A stretch of DNA of 64,000 nt from a phage. Of this stretch, positions 1,199-49,553 are shown in pieces; position 1 is the stretch's first letter, and the number at the start of each line of letters is the position of its first letter. The notes under the pieces were generated by a model that was given only the letters and a program-made list of their open reading frames with translations, was not told the origin of the DNA and did not search any database. A program made the translations under genes and the position numbers. The stretch lies in the NCBI GenBank assembly GCA_012813795.1, contig GCA_012813795.1_4087.1, one strand, 5' to 3'.

Positions 1199-1765
1199 TT
1201 ATAGTTTAACGTATGTTACTTCGGTTGCATCAGCCAAAGATGGCACATCAACGTAAATGTTTTCATATTCCACAAAATCAATGGTGGTTTTTACGAAAGC
1301 ATTATCAATACGTTGGATAGTTTTTTGAACTGAAATTTGTTCTTGTTCTAATGCATTAGTGCCGTTACCAGTTAATGCTGCATTTAGCATATCCTGAATA
1401 ACTTTTGCAGCGGCAGCAGTTTTTTGATCTTCAGTTTTGAGTTCTTTTTGTTCTTCAGCACTCAATGTGCTCAGGAACGGCTCATAACTAATATACCCAA
1501 CATGAATAGATGCATCAGAAGGGATAGTTTTTGCTGTACCTTCAGTGTTAAATTCTACTGTGTAATAGGTAGGGACTGAATGTTCAGATAGTAGGCGTGT
1601 TACATATTGCATACGCAAATAGGCAATACTTTTCGCTTTTGTTTCTGCATCAGATGGGGCCAGGGTTGCATCTGATGAATCATAATCATCATATTGATTA
1701 TACATTTTGTTATCTAGATTTGTACCAGACACACTGATTTTAAATACTTTTAATAAATTGTTCAC
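1199..1765 (-). CDS. hypothetical protein (188 aa)
   Basis: ORF packed tightly between neighbours; no recognisable motif. Confidence 0.6.
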   Translation of the reverse strand: MNNLLKVFKISVSGTNLDNKMYNQYDDYDSSDATLAPSDAETKAKSIAYLRMQYVTRLLSEHSVPTYYTVEFNTEGTAKTIPSDASIHVGYISYEPFLSTLSAEEQKELKTEDQKTAAAAKVIQDMLNAALTGNGTNALEQEQISVQKTIQRIDNAFVKTTIDFVEYENIYVDVPSLADATEVTYVKL

Positions 1766-1809
1766 TGTATATTTTCTCCATTATACAAAGCACTTTTGAT
1801 TATTTATTG

Positions 1810-7392
<5,583 letters not shown>

Positions 7393-41956: not shown

Positions 41957-42042
41957 CTATTGTATTCCTTTACATTGTATTAAGTTAAAATAAAAGCCCC
42001 CAACATTGGAGGCTCATAAATTTTTAAAGTGTTCAGTACTGA

Positions 42043-42345
42043 TTAATAATCATCAGCTTGTGGTAGATTATTAGTTACGCTTAGGATAGTTTCGATGTTG
42101 TCTAGTTTGTTTTGCTTATCAAAGTAATCACCTTTGTAAATGCGTTGTGCAGCTTGTTTGATATCGGATGCATCAATACCTAGCTCATCAGAAAGAGAGT
42201 TGATGAAATCAGTATAGGAAGCTTTGGTATCATCAATAAAGGTTAGCTGTACCACTGCATTGTTTAGACCATCACTTAGACGTTTACGTTGTTCGTCGTT
42301 TAGGTCACGAATTTCTACTTTTGCTTCTTTTTTAGACTTAGCCAT
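42043..42345 (-). CDS. hypothetical protein (100 aa)
   Basis: Start at the ATG at 42345 (MAKSKKEAKV) with GGAGAT RBS. Confidence 0.5.
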   Translation of the reverse strand: MAKSKKEAKVEIRDLNDEQRKRLSDGLNNAVVQLTFIDDTKASYTDFINSLSDELGIDASDIKQAAQRIYKGDYFDKQNKLDNIETILSVTNNLPQADDY

Positions 42346-42394
42346 TGTTTTATCTCCATGTGTTAATGAAAAAAATAGACACTCCACAATGTTC

Positions 42395-42432
42395 CTCGTG
42401 GAATGTCTCTATTATATCAGTACTTCTCAATG
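42395..42432 (-). terminator. rho-independent terminator
   Basis: Minus strand: AGAGACATTCCAC-gaggaacatt-GTGGAGTGTCT followed by ATTTTTTT. Confidence 0.5.
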
Positions 42433-42444
42433 TGTCCCAAATTT

Positions 42445-42900
42445 TTAAAGAAGGTTTAAAACTTCTTTAAGATCAGCGATTAGCTTCTCGTACTCAGCAG
42501 CTTCTTCAGTACTCAACATATCGAATTCTTTCTTCATGTCCAGTACTTTTTTGCGTTCACTCAAAAGATTGAATACTTGTTGTGCAGATAGTTGGCGTGG
42601 TGGTCTTTCGGAGAAAGTGCCGTTAACTTCGTTGTAAATTTTACCAACTAGTTCAGATTTATCCCCTGTATATTCAATTTCATATACACTATCATCTAAT
42701 GGACAGAGCATAGTAACATCATACGATGCACTAGTTACCATACCATTTTTATCTACTGTTATTTTTAATGTATCTTCTGAAAATAATTTATGTGAATCAT
42801 ACCAATCCATTCCACACTCAGAAATATAATATGCAATATTCATTCCTTTCAATTCAGGTTCATTACCTTCATATTTTTTAAAGTTTTTTAAAGTTATCAT
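42445..42900 (-). CDS. possible tail fibre assembly/chaperone protein
   Basis: Small gene immediately downstream of the tail fibre gene; assignment by position only. Confidence 0.3.
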   Translation of the reverse strand: MITLKNFKKYEGNEPELKGMNIAYYISECGMDWYDSHKLFSEDTLKITVDKNGMVTSASYDVTMLCPLDDSVYEIEYTGDKSELVGKIYNEVNGTFSERPPRQLSAQQVFNLLSERKKVLDMKKEFDMLSTEEAAEYEKLIADLKEVLNLL

Positions 42901-42903
42901 ATA

Positions 42904-44514
42904 TCACCCATCAATAGTTTTCCATGAACCATTAACTAAAATTTGCAAATATTTATAGTATACACCACCAATGTTATCAGCAGAGTTTTTACCAACATCC
43001 TGCACAATTATACCACTAAGCATTGCACCAGATGGACAGATGAAAGTCCAAGATATTTCGTTGTGGCCTGGATTAAATAATTTTTGCTCAATATAGCGGG
43101 CATCTTGTACTGAACCGGTAGTGATTGTTACATTACCATTACCATCTGCCCATGCACCATTAACTGTTCTCACGATAGGTTTACCACCAACAGATGCGGA
43201 ATTGGCATTAACTGTTAATGAACCTGGAATATACAAAGAACCACCACTGTTAACTGTTACAGCACCACCACCAGCACGAAGTCTTAGTTCATTACCTTGG
43301 AAGTATACTGCGGCACGTTCACCACCACTAGCGTTCTGGAAGAATAAGTACAAATCACCACCACCACGAATACCAGCACGGTTAGCAATGTATAATTCAC
43401 CAGACATTGTATCACCAGTTTTACGAACAAAACGATCATTTGCAGTATTTTCGCTCATCGCAACTGATGGTTCGGAAATGTTATACAAAATTGCAGTGTT
43501 AAAGTGTGGTACGTCAATACCTGTTACTGTATGGTTATGGGTAATTGTACGTGCGTTCGCATCATCATAAATTGGTTGTGAAGTTGATAATGCAGTTGCT
43601 GCATTGTTACCATCTACACTAAATTCCATACGGGCATTCTTATCACCAAAGATTGCTGGACCACGATAGCCTCTACCATCATTCCATGCTCTACCACTAA
43701 TGAAAACAGCATCATCTGCATCACTACCGTTAGTACCTAGCATTTTACCAGTTCCATGAATATGGTCTGGAATAGTGAAAGTACTCGGTGTTAATGAACC
43801 ACCACCTGCAATAATTGCGTCAGTTTTGGTTATACCACTAGTGGTGATACTTCTTAAATATCCATCACGGTTCAAGTTTGGTACTTGTTTGGTTATTGTA
43901 CCATTAGCACCTTGCCACTGCCACCACATACCATCAGCAAAACACCAACCATCGGATGTTTTCCACGGTTTAGCTTGGGAGCCGTCACGACCACTCTGTC
44001 CACCAGTACTACCCGACATTTGTTCACGTATACTAGCAACGGTTTGTCCAGATGTCAAGCTATAATGCATAATACATCCAGGTTTAGCACTCGTGTACAA
44101 ACCATTAGCACCTTGAATTGATGAAGGTGTTGGGAATATAATATTCAATGTAGTTCCGCTAATAGAAGCAGTTGGAATTGATGACATTGAATAGGTTACT
44201 CTATCAACCTTAGTTCCAAGTATAGAATTGATATCCTGAATCTGTTGTTCAATTGGTGCAACTACATCGGCAGCACTTAACATTTCAATCCAGTTAGTAC
44301 CATCATGATACTTCAAAGTAAGAGTGTTTTTGTCAAATACTATCGCCCCTGCTTCACCAACAGGTAAATCCTGAACAGGTAGTATTACCGATGAAGAATT
44401 CATTCTAATTGGTCGAGGATTAGTTGGTGTACCACCTAGTACTATTAGATTCAATGAACCATTTTCCGCAGTACTGGTTACAGTATTCTGTGGATGATTA
44501 AAACTTATGCTCAT
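42904..44514 (-). CDS. tail fibre protein
   Basis: G/S/T/N-rich beta-type composition with H.H motifs (IPDHIHGTG, HNHTVTG) as in T4 gp12/gp37 tips. Confidence 0.6.
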   Translation of the reverse strand: MSISFNHPQNTVTSTAENGSLNLIVLGGTPTNPRPIRMNSSSVILPVQDLPVGEAGAIVFDKNTLTLKYHDGTNWIEMLSAADVVAPIEQQIQDINSILGTKVDRVTYSMSSIPTASISGTTLNIIFPTPSSIQGANGLYTSAKPGCIMHYSLTSGQTVASIREQMSGSTGGQSGRDGSQAKPWKTSDGWCFADGMWWQWQGANGTITKQVPNLNRDGYLRSITTSGITKTDAIIAGGGSLTPSTFTIPDHIHGTGKMLGTNGSDADDAVFISGRAWNDGRGYRGPAIFGDKNARMEFSVDGNNAATALSTSQPIYDDANARTITHNHTVTGIDVPHFNTAILYNISEPSVAMSENTANDRFVRKTGDTMSGELYIANRAGIRGGGDLYLFFQNASGGERAAVYFQGNELRLRAGGGAVTVNSGGSLYIPGSLTVNANSASVGGKPIVRTVNGAWADGNGNVTITTGSVQDARYIEQKLFNPGHNEISWTFICPSGAMLSGIIVQDVGKNSADNIGGVYYKYLQILVNGSWKTIDG

Positions 44515-44554
44515 GTAAAAATCCTTTTTTGTTTAATATATATCATATTTATAT

Positions 44555-44863
44555 CTATAGTAAATCATTTTCCATATCATCCAATACGGAATCAATAATA
44601 TTTGCAGCTAACTTTTTAGGCATCTTGAACCATTCAGAGTTAGGTTGCCTTGTTGCATTCATTTGCTTTAATCTCTTATGCACTTCCTTTTCTGCTGTTC
44701 GTGCATCGTCAAACATAACCTGATGGTATACCTCAAAATCCCTGAATGGTGAAGCAGTCTGGTAAACACCTAAACGCTCTTTCATCTCTGATTTTGTAGT
44801 GAAGCCTATCTTTACATATTCAGGCCATGCACTATTAGTGATTACATAACATATTTGTGACAT
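44555..44863 (-). CDS. T5orf172 / GIY-YIG-like domain protein (102 aa)
   Basis: ICYVITN....YVKIGFTT.....R......ASP.........EWF fits the T5orf172 pattern. Confidence 0.5.
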   Translation of the reverse strand: MSQICYVITNSAWPEYVKIGFTTKSEMKERLGVYQTASPFRDFEVYHQVMFDDARTAEKEVHKRLKQMNATRQPNSEWFKMPKKLAANIIDSVLDDMENDLL

Positions 44864-44893
44864 AGATATCTCCTAGTATGGAGATATTTATTA

Positions 44894-45244
44894 TTAACTA
44901 ATTCTGAAGTTTACACCCGCATCTATCAGGCGTTGAAATGGATTTTGAGGATCAAACTCGGATGGGGTTTTAGGAGTGTTCAGTACTGGAGCATCAGCAT
45001 GTAACTTCGACATGCGTTCTTTGTATTTGTCAATATATTCTTCATACAACATGTCTTCTGAATCAGTACTCAATATATCTTCTATAAAATGATCAGTACT
45101 GTAATCCAGACGATCATCATTGTAATACAACGTCTCCGTAGCCTCATCATAACCCACCAACGTTCCATAAGGAACATTGATCTCAATTTTTGAGTACTGA
45201 CTCTTTAAGTACTCTTCTTTTTTAAAAATGTATACAGTTAACAT
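44894..45244 (-). CDS. hypothetical protein (116 aa)
   Basis: ORF. Confidence 0.5.
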   Translation of the reverse strand: MLTVYIFKKEEYLKSQYSKIEINVPYGTLVGYDEATETLYYNDDRLDYSTDHFIEDILSTDSEDMLYEEYIDKYKERMSKLHADAPVLNTPKTPSEFDPQNPFQRLIDAGVNFRIS

Positions 45245-45268
45245 AGTGAAAGCTTCCCTGCTTAGTGT

Positions 45269-46381
45269 TTATTCAAATGTATTTACAATCTCCAGTACTG
45301 TTTCAAGATACTTAGCATCAAAAGTTTCTGTGAATCCTGATGGCAACTCTTCAGTACTTACTACACCACTATCAATGTATTGTTTCAAAAACTTTTCCAG
45401 TACTAATGGTTTATGTCCATCTTCAAAGTAACGTTCTACCAGTACAGTGTGTTTAAAATCAGAATGACGACTTTGCTCATTTACACGGCGTTTCATATCG
45501 CCAGTGATTCCATACTTGTACACTGTCTTATCTTTATTAGTTAGTTTTTGAACATAGAAATATCCAGGTTTTGATGGCTGATATCCGTATTCACCACAAC
45601 CAGGACATCCCCTACCAGCAATGTGGGATTTTGGTGACTGTTGAAATATGCCATGTGTAGGACACGTTATTTTTACTGGAACAATACTACTTTCATACTC
45701 TACCGTACTGTAATCATACTTGTGACCATGAACTAGTTTTGCTTCAGAAATAAATTGTTCTGTTGTTCTTCCACCTTTACCAGAACATACACCACAACCT
45801 GATTTACCAAGTATCAATGTTTTTGGATCAACTTCCCAATCATGTTTCCCTTCATTACAATGTACTGTTACTTTAGTTGCTCTGTTAACATACTTTGTTT
45901 TTGAGAAACTAAGTTTATCACCATAGTTACGTTTGACAATTTTTATAAATTCGTCATTTGTATGCACAGTATTAATATTACAAACGTTACACCCAGCACC
46001 AGTTAATAACTTGTTCGGTGTTATGTCAAAATACCCACCATGTTCAGTACAGAATATTGAAACTTTAGTTTTTGCATTTACATAATTCAATTTATCAAAT
46101 TTAAATTTGTCAGCACCAAATTTTTTTTCAACTTTAGAAATGAAATCATCATTGTTTGAACGCTGTGACATGTTACTGTAACAATTTGAACATGTACATG
46201 AAATATGACGAATCGCTGATTTTGTATTTTCAATACCACATTTATTACATTTTAATGTAGTTTTACTTGATTTAAAAATCATTGAATCAAAATCAAACTC
46301 ACCATACATTCCGTATTTTTTAATCATATTTTCTTTAAAGTTTTTAATTAACATTTTATTCATCTCGGTGATTGTCTTCAA
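45269..46381 (-). CDS. putative homing-endonuclease-like protein: zinc-ribbon repeats plus C-terminal T5orf172/GIY-YIG-like domain
   Basis: N-terminal CxxC...CxxC, three ~45-aa repeats (KYxYS.V.Y.....K[VI].[VI].C..HG.F...P..H..G.GC..C), then GYFYV...VYKYGIT....R. Confidence 0.5.
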   Translation of the reverse strand: MKTITEMNKMLIKNFKENMIKKYGMYGEFDFDSMIFKSSKTTLKCNKCGIENTKSAIRHISCTCSNCYSNMSQRSNNDDFISKVEKKFGADKFKFDKLNYVNAKTKVSIFCTEHGGYFDITPNKLLTGAGCNVCNINTVHTNDEFIKIVKRNYGDKLSFSKTKYVNRATKVTVHCNEGKHDWEVDPKTLILGKSGCGVCSGKGGRTTEQFISEAKLVHGHKYDYSTVEYESSIVPVKITCPTHGIFQQSPKSHIAGRGCPGCGEYGYQPSKPGYFYVQKLTNKDKTVYKYGITGDMKRRVNEQSRHSDFKHTVLVERYFEDGHKPLVLEKFLKQYIDSGVVSTEELPSGFTETFDAKYLETVLEIVNTFE

Positions 46382-46477
46382 TGTGATAATTATATATAAT
46401 TAAATTTACCATGTCAAGCTTTTTTGTAAAAGAAAAGGGACTCCGAAGAGTCCCTAGTATATTTAAATTCTTTGTTA

Positions 46478-47653
46478 TTACATGAAAGTAACGTTTTTGA
46501 TAGCGATTTTGCTGTAGTAGTCAGCAGCATTACCCAAACTTGAAGTTGAGTCAGTGAGTTGCACGTAGCCATAGCGTGTTAAAAATGTCGTGACCAATTC
46601 TCCAGTGTTAGGGTCCATTACAGTACCAGAAGCCATTAGTGGGATGTATGGGCAATAGAATACACCAGCATCAGTTTCTGCATTACCTTTATAACCAATT
46701 AGAATATCTTCTACATCTGAGGCGTAAGTATCGACAAATATACGCATGGTGCTGTTTAGAGTACCAACGAATTTAACGTTAGTTGGTGCTTCAAAAGTAC
46801 CTTCAGTAGTACGTGCAAAGCTGGAAGTAGTTGCAGACTGTAGAATGGTTAGAGCAGTTGGGGAAACAACAGCCCAGTTCGCAGCACCACGTTTGGTACG
46901 ACGAGCAACTTCGTTCGCTTGACGGTTGATTAGGGTAGCTAGAGCAGCGTGCTCATCACCTACGAAGGTTGCAACGCCAGTAACTTTAGATTGGTCATAA
47001 GTTACAGCAGCAGCACCAGGTAGTGCACGTAGACGGCTTAGTAGCTCTTGGTCGATTTCAACGGTAACTTCTTGAGCGATAGCAGCCATTAGTTCAGCTT
47101 CAACGTCGATACCATGTTGAGATTGTGCATCTTGTGCAGATTCAACAGTCCAACGTGCAGATAGACGACGAGATTTCGCTTCAACAGTTTCACGTAGGAT
47201 ACGGATGTTAACGCGACGACCCATAGTACCTTCTAGTTGGCTAGTAGGAGCAGCTTGTGGGTTACTGTTGTCAGAGTTTAGCTCACCAGTGTAAGATTTA
47301 GCAATCTTGAATGGAGATAGCATTTCTTCGCCAGCTACAACACCTGGTGCGTTGTCAGCGTATTGAACACGTAGAGTGTGGATTTGACCAACTGGGCCAG
47401 TCATTGGTTGAACACCGATGATTTCGTTAGCGATAACGGTTGGCATTACACGACGCATAATTGGTAGAATCACTTTGTTTAGAGTAGCGATGTTACCAGC
47501 AGAAGTTGCACCAGAGGTTGCAGATTCTTGTAGCATAACTTTGCGATGGTTATCAAGTACGGTTTCCATTACAGATTTACGAGTACCTTGAAGACCTTCA
47601 ACTAGTTTCTCTTTAACTGCTACCCATTTGGATTCATTTAGTAGTTGTGACAT
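46478..47653 (-). CDS. 23: major capsid protein (gp23-like)
   Basis: LNKVILPIMRRVMPTVIANEIIGVQPMTGPVGQIHTLRVQY matches the conserved gp23 block; strong codon bias. Confidence 0.85.
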   Translation of the reverse strand: MSQLLNESKWVAVKEKLVEGLQGTRKSVMETVLDNHRKVMLQESATSGATSAGNIATLNKVILPIMRRVMPTVIANEIIGVQPMTGPVGQIHTLRVQYADNAPGVVAGEEMLSPFKIAKSYTGELNSDNSNPQAAPTSQLEGTMGRRVNIRILRETVEAKSRRLSARWTVESAQDAQSQHGIDVEAELMAAIAQEVTVEIDQELLSRLRALPGAAAVTYDQSKVTGVATFVGDEHAALATLINRQANEVARRTKRGAANWAVVSPTALTILQSATTSSFARTTEGTFEAPTNVKFVGTLNSTMRIFVDTYASDVEDILIGYKGNAETDAGVFYCPYIPLMASGTVMDPNTGELVTTFLTRYGYVQLTDSTSSLGNAADYYSKIAIKNVTFM

Positions 47654-47745
47654 TATATTATCTCCTTAAAGATGTTATATTCGTTTTTCAGTATGTTATT
47701 ATTTATGGTACTGAAAAAATTGATTATTAAAATGCTTTAAAATGT

Positions 47746-48864
47746 TTATTTTTTATTGATACCAGAAAGAACGTCGAGTTCTTTTAGGAATGCCATATCG
47801 TCAGCGGTCATTTCTTCGCTTTCAACAATAGCCTGACGGTTGCCAGTGATTACTTTACCTTCTGCTAGGGTTGTTTTCTTCGCTGAAGGTTGAACTGCTT
47901 GACGAGTGGTAGCAGATTCATTTACTTTAGTACCGTTAAGTACAGACTTATGGTACTTGCTGAAATCTTCTTTAAGCTTTTCTGTTGGAGAAGCAGCTAG
48001 AAGGGATTCCATAATTTGTTTTTGTTGACTAGTCAAAGGCTTAACCAATTCAGACATAATCGCATTGCGTGCCTGTGTATCTTCCATGATACGTAGTTTT
48101 GATTGAACTTCTTTAACTGCGTTAACAGATTCATTTAGTTCTTGTTTAACTTGAGCAATCTCATCTTCTTTAGATTTGATTGATTCAGTCAAAGAACGAA
48201 GTAGTGAATTCTCATTAAATTGTTTGGTATTAAATTCTTGAGCAAATGCTTCAAAGATTTTACGACCGAACATATTTTGTTTAGCTTCAGCAAGATCTTG
48301 TTTCAAAGCGTAAAGATTTTTCTGAGTGGTTTCTGCAATATATTTAGCAGCACTTTCAGAGGTACGTTTGATAAAGTTATTACGTGCTTCTGCAATTTGA
48401 CGAGAACCTTCAGCAAGTAGTTTTACACGAGCTTCTACTAGTTGACGTTTTTCGCTGTGGAATTCTTTTAGTTCTTCAGCTAGGATACCGTTAGAGAAAT
48501 TAACGAATTTACCGAGGCTTTCTTGAACTAGTTTACGTTCGTTACGCATTTGTTTAACTTCTTCAGCTAGTACTGAATTAGCGAATTCAGAGAAGTTACC
48601 AAGAGTTTTACGGAGGGTAACGCGGTCTTCAACGAGACGTTTTTTCTCGTCATATACTGCACCCATTTCTTCAGCGATAACTTGAGTAACCATAGTGTTA
48701 AGACCTTCTGTTAGTTCAGCTAGGTCTTGTTTATAACGGCCTTTCATTTCTTCACGCATTTCAGCGGCTAGTGTGTTCTTTTCTTCATTCCATGCTTCCT
48801 GAATTAGCTGTTTTGCTTCATCAGAAAGAGATGATTCTTTTAGAAGCTTTTCTAATTTAGACAT
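47746..48864 (-). CDS. 22: prohead scaffold protein (gp22-like)
   Basis: Long coiled-coil, K/E/Q-rich protein between the protease and capsid genes. Confidence 0.6.
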   Translation of the reverse strand: MSKLEKLLKESSLSDEAKQLIQEAWNEEKNTLAAEMREEMKGRYKQDLAELTEGLNTMVTQVIAEEMGAVYDEKKRLVEDRVTLRKTLGNFSEFANSVLAEEVKQMRNERKLVQESLGKFVNFSNGILAEELKEFHSEKRQLVEARVKLLAEGSRQIAEARNNFIKRTSESAAKYIAETTQKNLYALKQDLAEAKQNMFGRKIFEAFAQEFNTKQFNENSLLRSLTESIKSKEDEIAQVKQELNESVNAVKEVQSKLRIMEDTQARNAIMSELVKPLTSQQKQIMESLLAASPTEKLKEDFSKYHKSVLNGTKVNESATTRQAVQPSAKKTTLAEGKVITGNRQAIVESEEMTADDMAFLKELDVLSGINKK

Positions 48865-48913
48865 TCTGTTCTCTCCTTTAAGTACTGAAATATCTGTACT
48901 TCAAATATACAAA

Positions 48914-48921
48914 TATTTATA
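48914..48921 (-). promoter_or_regulatory. late promoter (TATAAATA)
   Basis: Exact TATAAATA on the minus strand about 50 nt upstream of the scaffold start. Confidence 0.45.
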
Positions 48922-48932
48922 ATTTTAAAATG

Positions 48933-49553
48933 TTAACCTTTTAATTTCTTGAAAAAATCATAAATTTCAGAATCTAGTTTATTTACTGATTTAGATTCTG
49001 CGATTTTTTTAGGTCCATTGCAAGGTGAGCCGTACTTACTCATCAAAGACTCAAATACCGCTGTTGGGTACGCTTCGGGAGCACTAGGTTGAGCAACAAT
49101 ATCAATTGTGATAATTTCGAAATCAGAAACTATTCCATTATAATCAACGTTACCGGAACCACGAGAACTTACACCAAGTTTTACACCTGCTTCGAGCATT
49201 TTACGAATATTTTGACCATGTGCAGTATCAAGTAATTTGATTTCTGCCATCCCATTAGAACCTTCCATCCAGACTTTAGTAATCATTGCTGCTACACGGT
49301 CAAGGTTAATAGTCAAAGTTTCAGGGTGGTCACATTCTACTAGAATGCTTTCGCCTTTAGCCAAACGTTGAGCCATATTATTAACAGCTTTAGCAATTTC
49401 GGCTAAAGGGTAAATTCTTTCGTTCAAATTACGCTGGTCAGCTTGAATTGCGATACCACGAAGATAGCAATCGCGACCTCCCAGCCCATTTTCACGATGT
49501 TCCATAACAATTTGTGAATCATTGAATGAAGACCATTCACGAATCATACTCAT
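48933..49553 (-). CDS. 21: prohead core protease (gp21-like)
   Basis: ILVECDHPETL resembles the gp21 GELDHP active-site region. Confidence 0.7.
   Translation of the reverse strand: MSMIREWSSFNDSQIVMEHRENGLGGRDCYLRGIAIQADQRNLNERIYPLAEIAKAVNNMAQRLAKGESILVECDHPETLTINLDRVAAMITKVWMEGSNGMAEIKLLDTAHGQNIRKMLEAGVKLGVSSRGSGNVDYNGIVSDFEIITIDIVAQPSAPEAYPTAVFESLMSKYGSPCNGPKKIAESKSVNKLDSEIYDFFKKLKG

Follow-up and report, generated by a model that had tools for sequence, protein, structure and literature searches.

Two open reading frames (ORFs) that resemble T5orf172 nuclease genes lie close together between the capsid and tail-fibre genes in a 64 000-nucleotide stretch of phage DNA (NCBI GenBank assembly GCA_012813795.1, contig GCA_012813795.1_4087.1; the window), and they raise the question of whether both are mobile homing genes. 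A preliminary description of the sequence had leaned towards this reading, while noting that the domain also occurs in defence-associated proteins. Our analysis gives a different answer for each gene. The large gene is probably a free-standing homing gene belonging to the class that Barth et al. (2023; PMC10448857) described, and the small gene, which encodes a 102-residue protein, is probably a fixed nuclease gene that was either domesticated or never mobile. The homing reading is upheld for the large gene by its presence and absence among relatives, by unrelated alleles at its site, by a remnant in phage GAP32 and by a recombinant allele in the window itself; it does not extend to the small gene, which is fixed in 63 of 63 records with a close homolog. 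Occurrence at the same position in all related genomes had been named beforehand as the outcome that would speak against homing, and this was found for the small gene (63/63) and not for the large one, whose site is empty at 6 of 22 loci.

A megablast search with positions 42000–49000 matched 73 phage records. Among these Escherichia phage A4 (Asteriusvirus) stands closest, with 92% identity along the entire stretch; 121Q, PBECO4 and other ~350 kb jumbo coliphages come next, and the window is from an Asteriusvirus-like jumbo coliphage of E. coli. The flanking genes match Gp23 and phrog_13229 (Table 1), in agreement with the location first given for the pair, and the spacing of the two ORFs, described as about 400 bp, was measured as 405 bp; the gap contains a third ORF of 116 residues. 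No paralogs of the two nuclease genes were found within the 64 kb window.

The distribution of the large gene carries most of the argument. At six of the 22 loci compared (PBECO4, SD-1_S14, fEgEco12, CMSTMSU, Yersinia phage fHe-Yen9-04 and Erwinia phage Hallingskeid) the slot is empty, so that the proposed comparison with relatives lacking the insertion yields a clean empty site. PBECO4 retains the 116-residue and 102-residue-type genes and has nothing between the capsid terminator and the 116-residue gene, and a four-way alignment shows a clean indel of ~1.1–1.2 kb whose edges are the terminator hairpin and the start of the 116-residue gene. The nuclease genes that occupy the slot fall into five ORF size classes, from no fewer than four T5orf172 lineages and an unrelated class of nuclease. 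These are four-module alleles of ~361–368 residues (window, A4, 121Q, EJP2, L010 and L011), three-module alleles of ~305 residues that lack module 1 (Sharanji and Munch), a distinct 332-residue T5orf172 gene (JNE01, TH47 and SHEFM2K), a 406-residue gene with CapR, DUF723, DUF4379 and MUG113 domains (Turkey5) and, from the other nuclease class, a 532–552-residue gene with DUF7487 and a weak restriction-endonuclease-like (MTES_1575) match (UE-S1, 1435–3093; ph0011, 1484–3082). The slot of XaC1 contains unrelated small ORFs. In GAP32 it contains a decayed fragment, the last ~52 residues of a T5orf172 domain (E = 8e-13), which lies within an annotated 77-residue ORF (3756–3989 of the locus extract) and is 47% identical to the JNE01-type allele; judged by this similarity, it is a fossil of an earlier slot occupant in another genus. 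The capsid genes of PBECO4, with an empty slot, and SHEFM2K, with the 332-residue nuclease ORF, are identical, and gain or loss at the slot is therefore recent. The large gene thus has the features by which homing genes are generally recognized, namely sporadic presence and absence at one site and a recognizable empty site. As read from these sequences, the pattern is one of invasion, decay and loss, as expected of homing endonuclease genes, and the slot is a hotspot for such genes.

The large protein had been described as having 370 residues, with an N-terminal CxxC pair, three tandem Cys/His repeats of ~45 residues and a C-terminal T5orf172-like domain. The minus-strand ORF is present, but a length of 370 residues corresponds to a start at TTG 46381. 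The protein most likely comprises 361 residues and starts at ATG 46354, because its closest database homologs have 361–369 residues, two gene calls made independently at this slot have 361 and 362 residues, and the alignment with A4 places a ribosome-binding site (AAGAGA-N8-ATG) at the position matching the window ATG. Instead of three repeats, four tandem modules of ~62–65 residues are found. The N-terminal cysteines exist, but they belong to a degenerate first copy of the module (CxxC...CxCxxC) and not to a separate element. Modules 2–4 follow the pattern Cx2(5)H...Cx2C and are 27–39% identical to one another. The matches of the window copy to zinc-module families in Pfam (DUF723, DUF4379, CapR and HypA) are weak or below threshold; DUF723, DUF4379 and CapR are precomputed on nearly all of its homologs, and the Cys/His ligands are invariant across 36 homologs. 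In an AlphaFold2 (AF2) model of the 361-residue protein (predicted local distance difference test score of 85, predicted template-modelling score of 0.37) a helix and then a β-hairpin, with a zinc site, are predicted for each module, and the domains are arranged as beads on a string. Since the modelled chain is flexible and has several domains, a Foldseek search with all of it against the PDB gave only noise (best TM of 0.19). The name 'very-short-patch-repair endonuclease' is attached to many database homologs of the zinc modules; on the basis of these labels and of the UE-S1 and ph0011 slot ORFs, the same binding modules appear to be combined with alternative nuclease domains. As a separate observation, the G+C content is 25–30% over the zinc-module half of the gene (45800–46400) and 44–48% in the adjacent capsid gene, a difference that would fit a foreign, recently exchanged segment.

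The C-terminal T5orf172-like domain stands at the level of the family, the window copy alone scoring below the Pfam cut-offs. Its membership follows from family-level matches, the match of the large protein to phrog_681 'endonuclease' (8e-80) and the motif residues. Among the homologous C-termini, T5orf172 is matched at E ≤ 0.1 by 15 of 17 (best 1.7e-5) and MUG113 by 16 of 17 (best 5e-6), and the JNE01-type allele in the same slot passes the Pfam cut-off (26.2 bits). Residues Y267, Y279-K280-x-G282, R290, E320 and E343 are invariant in 36 homologs, and the topology predicted in the AF2 model is β-β-α-β-α. The C-terminal half is 33% identical to the ICP1 protein 'tcgB: putative homing endonuclease' (tblastn). 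In a weak profile alignment (hhalign, E = 0.003) the motif residues are in register with K18-G20, R30 and E58 of the 102-residue protein. With a probability of 11% in the same comparison, the idea that the two nuclease genes are recent paralogs was rejected; they are distant relatives. Neither protein matches the canonical GIY-YIG model PF01541 at E ≤ 1, and profile searches of PDB sequences with the two nuclease domains gave no meaningful match, only a designed repeat protein with one domain and E > 4 with the second; by such searches, no solved T5orf172 structure is detectable.

The window copy of the large gene records an exchange between phage lineages. The window and A4 are 99–100% identical over two stretches, one running from the tail-fibre gene up to and including the part that encodes the nuclease domain and the other beginning midway in the capsid gene, but in a sliding profile the identity across ~45570–46600 is only 54–85%. 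A metagenomic phage contig, L010, shows the opposite pattern, being 97–100% identical to the window in the tract interval and ~75–85% elsewhere. Informative sites are A4-like up to 45578, L010-like from 45587 to 46592 (~290 sites, with isolated exceptions) and A4-like or mixed from 46598. The left breakpoint (45578/45587) lies in a linker that is conserved at the nucleotide level, ...CG-x-YGYQPSKPGYFY, and that joins zinc module 4 to the nuclease domain; the right one (46592/46598) lies ~115 nt inside the capsid gene. The tract contains the zinc modules, the promoter, the terminator and the last ~115 nt of the capsid gene. One tract of ~1 kb has moved between phage lineages, and the window gene is a natural chimera. 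Synonymous divergence (dS) of the capsid gene, estimated per gene for the window and 121Q, is low in every comparison and does not resolve the slot boundary.

A promoter is also part of the cassette. It is a perfect σ70 promoter, TTGACA-17-TATAAT, situated between the capsid terminator and the large gene's start codon, and no other 12/12 site occurs in the 64 kb window, where chance would give 0.12. This promoter is shared by the A4, L010 and L011 alleles; in 121Q the sequence is TTTACA-17-TATAAT and in the JNE01-type allele TTGCAC-17-TATTAT. No σ70-like promoter was found at the slot in empty-site phages. A consensus promoter of its own amid late structural genes suggests that the nuclease is expressed early by the host polymerase, which would suit an enzyme that acts on a co-infecting genome. 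A perfect early-type promoter would equally suit rapid attack, and the large gene might then be chiefly a weapon against competing phage or satellite DNA that does not spread by homing. The T5orf172 nuclease Odn of phage ICP1 has such a use (PMC8263062), and many alleles vie for the one slot beside an essential gene. We nevertheless give this explanation little credence: it overlaps heavily with homing, marker exclusion being the population-level effect of homing, and the joint transfer of gene segments and adjoining capsid sequence is the signature of repair-mediated copying and not of simple destruction.

The same promoter bears on a further alternative. Since no terminator follows the large gene, the promoter could also drive the two genes downstream, and the 361-residue protein might be mainly a sequence-specific DNA-binding regulator of capsid or late genes, with cleavage secondary or lost, comparable to CapR or to autorepression by I-TevI. 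The gene adjoins the capsid gene, and its zinc modules are homologous to those of CapR, a satellite-encoded protein proven to repress the capsid operon of ICP1 and descended from this gene class and its zinc module (PMC8096241). Both proteins are capsid-associated in this sense, the CapR Pfam match being weak in the window and 1e-10 in the Turkey5 allele. CapR itself, however, has lost the nuclease domain, whereas that of the large gene is intact and its motif residues are invariant even in distant homologs, which would not be expected if binding alone mattered. The large gene is also dispensable, as closely related phages have empty sites, and the turnover of unrelated nuclease alleles fits selfish elements better. 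A mainly regulatory role is accordingly rated as improbable.

From the domain architecture, the distribution and the tract, we infer a cleavage activity, a target site near the slot and homing, which may operate as follows. A long DNA site would be recognized jointly by the four zinc-finger modules and cut by the C-terminal T5orf172 domain. The gene and its host-type promoter form a cassette inserted directly after the capsid terminator. In a mixed infection the nuclease would be made early and cut the related phage genome near the slot, and repair of the break by copying from the nuclease-carrying genome would transfer the cassette with some flanking sequence. In the window copy, the zinc modules, promoter and capsid 3' end come from an L010-like phage and the nuclease domain from an A4-like phage, joined in the YGYQPSKPGYFY linker.

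Such a mechanism has close counterparts. In the T5orf172 homing class, repeated CapR/DUF723/DUF4379 zinc-finger domains are followed by T5orf172, 31% of gene neighbourhoods include a capsid gene, recombination between intragenic repeats changes the number of modules, and genes exchange their DNA-binding and nuclease halves (PMC10448857). The large gene shares with the ICP1 members of this class (gp121, gp130, gp165 and gp174, 'tcgB'; PMC10448857) the zinc modules with a C-terminal T5orf172 domain, the free-standing position by the capsid gene, the varying module number, the swapping of domains at the linker and the location at an exchange boundary. It differs in its host, here a ~350 kb Asteriusvirus coliphage, and the identity is limited to ~33% in the nuclease domain; in both cases homing is deduced. 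The main text of PMC10448857 makes no mention of Asteriusvirus, 121Q or Rak2-like phages. Odn (Gp88) likewise consists of a DNA-binding domain and a C-terminal T5orf172 domain with conserved Arg and Glu residues and arose by recombination of two lineages; the purified enzyme cuts DNA in vitro, and the E180A substitution of the conserved glutamate abolishes cutting, so that T5orf172 is an experimentally established nuclease module (PMC8263062). In contrast to the large gene, with its zinc modules and the distribution of a selfish insertion, Odn has a RepA_N domain and targets the satellite replication origin as an anti-parasite weapon. The Seg and I-TevI nucleases of T4 are also encoded by free-standing cassettes between conserved genes, 'beads on a string' with their own promoters, and the localized co-conversion of flanking markers in T4 resembles the window tract (T4 knowledge; PMC10448857). 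In the T4 enzymes, however, the nuclease domain is N-terminal and the binding domain C-terminal, an order reversed in the 361-residue protein, and the second motif here is K-x-G and not YIG.

The small gene behaves in the opposite way. The 102-residue ORF had been described as a stand-alone T5orf172-like gene, and it passes both Pfam cut-offs: T5orf172 is matched with 49.0 bits (cut-off 20; 9e-13) over profile positions 2–99 of 101 and MUG113 with 48.4 bits (cut-off 22.3; 1.5e-12). It is single-copy and full length in 63 of 63 records, with 70–100% identity (tblastn, E ≤ 1e-30); the set comprises Asteriusvirus, Munch-like Salmonella phages, GAP32, CBB, Serratia phage BF, Yersinia phage fHe-Yen9-04, Erwinia phages and Xanthomonas phage XaC1. 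It is present at 22 of 22 inspected loci, in synteny across at least four genera (Asteriusvirus, Mimasvirus, Eneladusvirus, Munch and XaC1), and always lies just upstream of the tail-fibre gene, with one extra small ORF between them in XaC1. Its protein is 71–87% identical among relatives and 71–80% across genera, compared with 62–86% for the prohead protease, 59–72% for the scaffold, 61–80% for the N-terminus of the DNA polymerase, 41–53% for the tail fibre and 30–36% for the 116-residue protein. The dN/dS ratio is 0.03–0.1 where dS is measurable; elsewhere dS is saturated and dN is 0.1–0.2. These values point to strong purifying selection and conservation like that of core genes. Being fixed, selected and intact in its active-site residues, the 102-residue gene is not a currently mobile homing gene. 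An exhaustive profile search found 4081 relatives of the protein, only two representatives of which reach E ≤ 1e-30, so that its clade is tight and isolated.

It could still be argued that both genes home, the 102-residue gene having swept to fixation in the clade and remaining active because it still targets phages outside it. The protein has the full T5orf172 motif set, 24 of its 149 nearest representatives are also stand-alone proteins of ≤110 residues, and the short T5orf172-only ORFs of T5-like phages, which are annotated as putative homing endonucleases, are variably present. No sporadic presence or absence of the 102-residue gene was seen, however, in the 63 records or at the 22 loci; the protein has no DNA-recognition domain, no identity breakpoints occur at the gene borders, and conservation at the level of core genes is the opposite of the decay that follows fixation, as exemplified by the GAP32 slot remnant. 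We consider homing of both genes quite unlikely.

From its conservation, we infer that the small protein serves the phage as a nuclease, for example in DNA processing, and it may act with a partner protein since it contains no DNA-reading domain. Its predicted fold is of the GIY-YIG type (β-β-α-β-α) with conserved Tyr, Arg and Glu residues. Whether this fold is still catalytic can be questioned, because the association of T5orf172 with Bro-N and KilA-N domains originally led to the proposal that it binds DNA (PMC8096241), the conserved acidic C-terminal helix could mediate protein contacts and the gene lies within a late structural gene cluster. That the protein is a non-catalytic DNA-binding or adaptor protein retaining the T5orf172 fold nonetheless seems rather unlikely: R30 and E58, the equivalents of the catalytic Arg and Glu, are invariant together with Y6 and E77 in 23 of 23 aligned homologs, and the closest solved folds are those of the active nucleases SLX1 and HIGLE. 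Small stand-alone comparators with a GIY-YIG fold are the SLX1 catalytic domain, UPF0213/EF2693 and the T5orf172 ORFs of T5 phages. SLX1 needs SLX4 and additional domains, and the T5-phage ORFs are variably present, unlike the 102-residue gene, which is fixed and core-like in its clade. The acidic tail itself, ...DD(M/L)(E/D)N(D/G)LL (44555–44600), is conserved at the C-terminus as an amphipathic helix and has the look of a protein-interaction element.

The 116-residue protein could be the partner of the small nuclease-fold protein. A gene of this type precedes the 102-residue gene at every inspected locus except in XaC1, in which no homolog was detected. The protein is fast-evolving between genera, with a conserved C-terminal segment. 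Comparison of its profile with the N-terminal extensions of the 149 T5orf172 relatives, as for a nuclease split into two genes, gave nothing (E > 0.4).

The suggestion that the genes might be defence-associated was not borne out. With PADLOC, the 102-residue protein matches PDC-S57 only at positions 5–93 of 212 (3.6e-16) and PD-Lambda-1 weakly, with no full-length match; the shared T5orf172 domain accounts for the suggestion. The 361-residue protein gave no relevant match. Both genes lie among the structural genes of a lytic jumbo phage and not in a cellular defence island.

The end of the capsid gene beside the slot is unusual in its silent sites. Codons 351–375 of 391 show 0.735 synonymous differences per codon, compared with a gene mean of 0.19 (15 unique sequences), and no non-synonymous changes; this value was reached in 0 of 5000 codon permutations. 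Four of the five Ser TCN–AGY switches in the gene fall in codons 369–381, at or just 3' of the patch. The last 59 residues are identical across the Asteriusviruses examined, and the final ~45 nt are nearly invariant. The patch was considered as an immunity mark that tracks the state of the slot, and this was rejected, as identical capsid genes occur with empty and with filled slots; because the haplotypes are independent of slot state, a simple target-site immunity model is rejected as well. The patch may be the residue of repeated import of divergent tracts beside the slot, or it may reflect selection for silent escape from cleavage. A more elaborate scenario, which we regard as possible but doubtful, is that the 102-residue gene is a captured homing domain turned core gene of the jumbo-phage clade and that the patch is the record of a nuclease arms race. 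The captured domain could have taken on a task of its own, such as DNA processing together with a partner, or could promote exchange of the hypervariable tail-fibre gene, and at the capsid 3' end at least five nuclease lineages from two nuclease classes could be rivals for one slot by cutting the patch sequence.

Several points weigh against a homing large gene beside a fixed small nuclease. The 22 loci of the slot survey are not mutually independent. The C-terminus of the window copy scores 17.2 bits against T5orf172 (PF10544; cut-off 20, E = 0.007–0.02) and 19.3 bits against MUG113 (PF13455; cut-off 22.3, E = 0.002–0.006). The tract proves exchange at the large gene and not the nuclease as its cause, and the patch haplotypes reassort with slot alleles without tracking slot state. 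Homing of the T5orf172 class is deduced from genomics also by Barth et al. (2023; PMC10448857). For the small gene, dN/dS is a rough Nei–Gojobori estimate, with dS saturated in most pairs. A weaker point is that the 102-residue protein does not appear in the part of the phAPEC6 virion mass-spectrometry table available to us; the protein is small, and the tail-fibre product is absent too.

Relatives of these genes had already been annotated as 'endonuclease', 'T5orf172' or 'GIY-YIG nuclease'; new here are the slot survey, the mapped natural chimera, the silent-site patch in the capsid gene and the small gene as a core-like nuclease-fold protein. Among records the labels of both genes vary between 'hypothetical', 'endonuclease', 'GIY-YIG nuclease', 'homing endonuclease', DUF4379 protein and 'DNA polymerase II', and annotation gains from telling a truly mobile gene apart from a fixed look-alike. 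The last of these labels is carried by the large-gene ortholog in OQ708376.1 (phage vB_EcoM_CRJP21, 204014–205087), an apparent misannotation. The locus offers a natural system for testing T5orf172 homing in culturable E. coli phages, with near-isogenic filled and empty pairs (SHEFM2K/PBECO4 and 121Q/PBECO4) and a natural chimera that maps an exchange tract of ~1 kb. With it, the siting of nuclease genes at exchange boundaries, observed before in vibriophages, is seen in jumbo coliphages as well. Some of these are studied for phage therapy, and recombination beside the capsid and tail-fibre genes affects their genome stability and host range. The conserved 102-residue protein may represent a new DNA-processing function encoded by phages.

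Table 1. Features of the nuclease locus and its flanks, in window coordinates.
Feature	Position	Strand	Basis
gp23-like major capsid gene (MCP)	46478-47653	-	Pfam Gp23 5e-90
Silent-site hot patch, capsid codons 351-375 of 391	46529..46603	-	Synonymous-difference count
Intrinsic terminator of capsid gene, conserved edge of insertion slot	46436..46455	-	Terminator scan; kept in filled and empty sites
Perfect σ70 promoter TTGACA-17-TATAAT of nuclease cassette	46389..46417	-	12/12 consensus matches
Probable free-standing T5orf172-class homing-endonuclease gene, 361 aa	45269..46354	-	ORF; phrog_681 'endonuclease' 8e-80; homolog lengths; empty site in PBECO4 and others
Four tandem zinc-finger modules, CapR/DUF723/DUF4379 type, predicted DNA-binding	45587..46354	-	aa 1-62, 63-127, 128-192, 193-256
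C-terminal T5orf172/MUG113 (GIY-YIG superfamily) nuclease domain, aa ~263-361	45272..45568	-	Invariant residues, family matches, predicted topology
Recombinant ~1-kb tract, L010-like (97-100%) in A4-like (99-100%) backbone	45587..46592		Sliding identity profiles, informative-site runs
116-aa gene	44894-45244	-	phrog_15724; no Pfam family
Stand-alone T5orf172 (GIY-YIG-fold) protein, 102 aa	44555..44863	-	Invariant Y6, K18, G20, R30, E58, E77, W78
Tail-fibre gene	42904-44514	-	phrog_13229 1e-218
TATAAATA copies	44546-44553, 42950-42957, 48914-48921	-	Motif match

Every gene of the region is on the minus strand, in the transcription order prohead protease, scaffold, capsid, large ORF, 116-residue ORF, 102-residue ORF, tail fibre and tail-fibre assembly protein, with the DNA polymerase gene farther along. 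The genes around the nuclease cassette are late structural genes. A T4-type late-promoter motif, TATAAATA, lies 30–50 nt upstream of the tail-fibre, tail-fibre-assembly and scaffold starts; as an enriched late-promoter motif it was rejected, with six copies observed and 8.4 expected in the window. Downstream of the tail fibre, the chaperone gene content differs between the window (42043–42900) and A4 (948–2101 of the locus extract). A4 has two annotated chaperone genes there, with ~700 bp extra relative to the window, a local mosaic difference in a near-identical pair.

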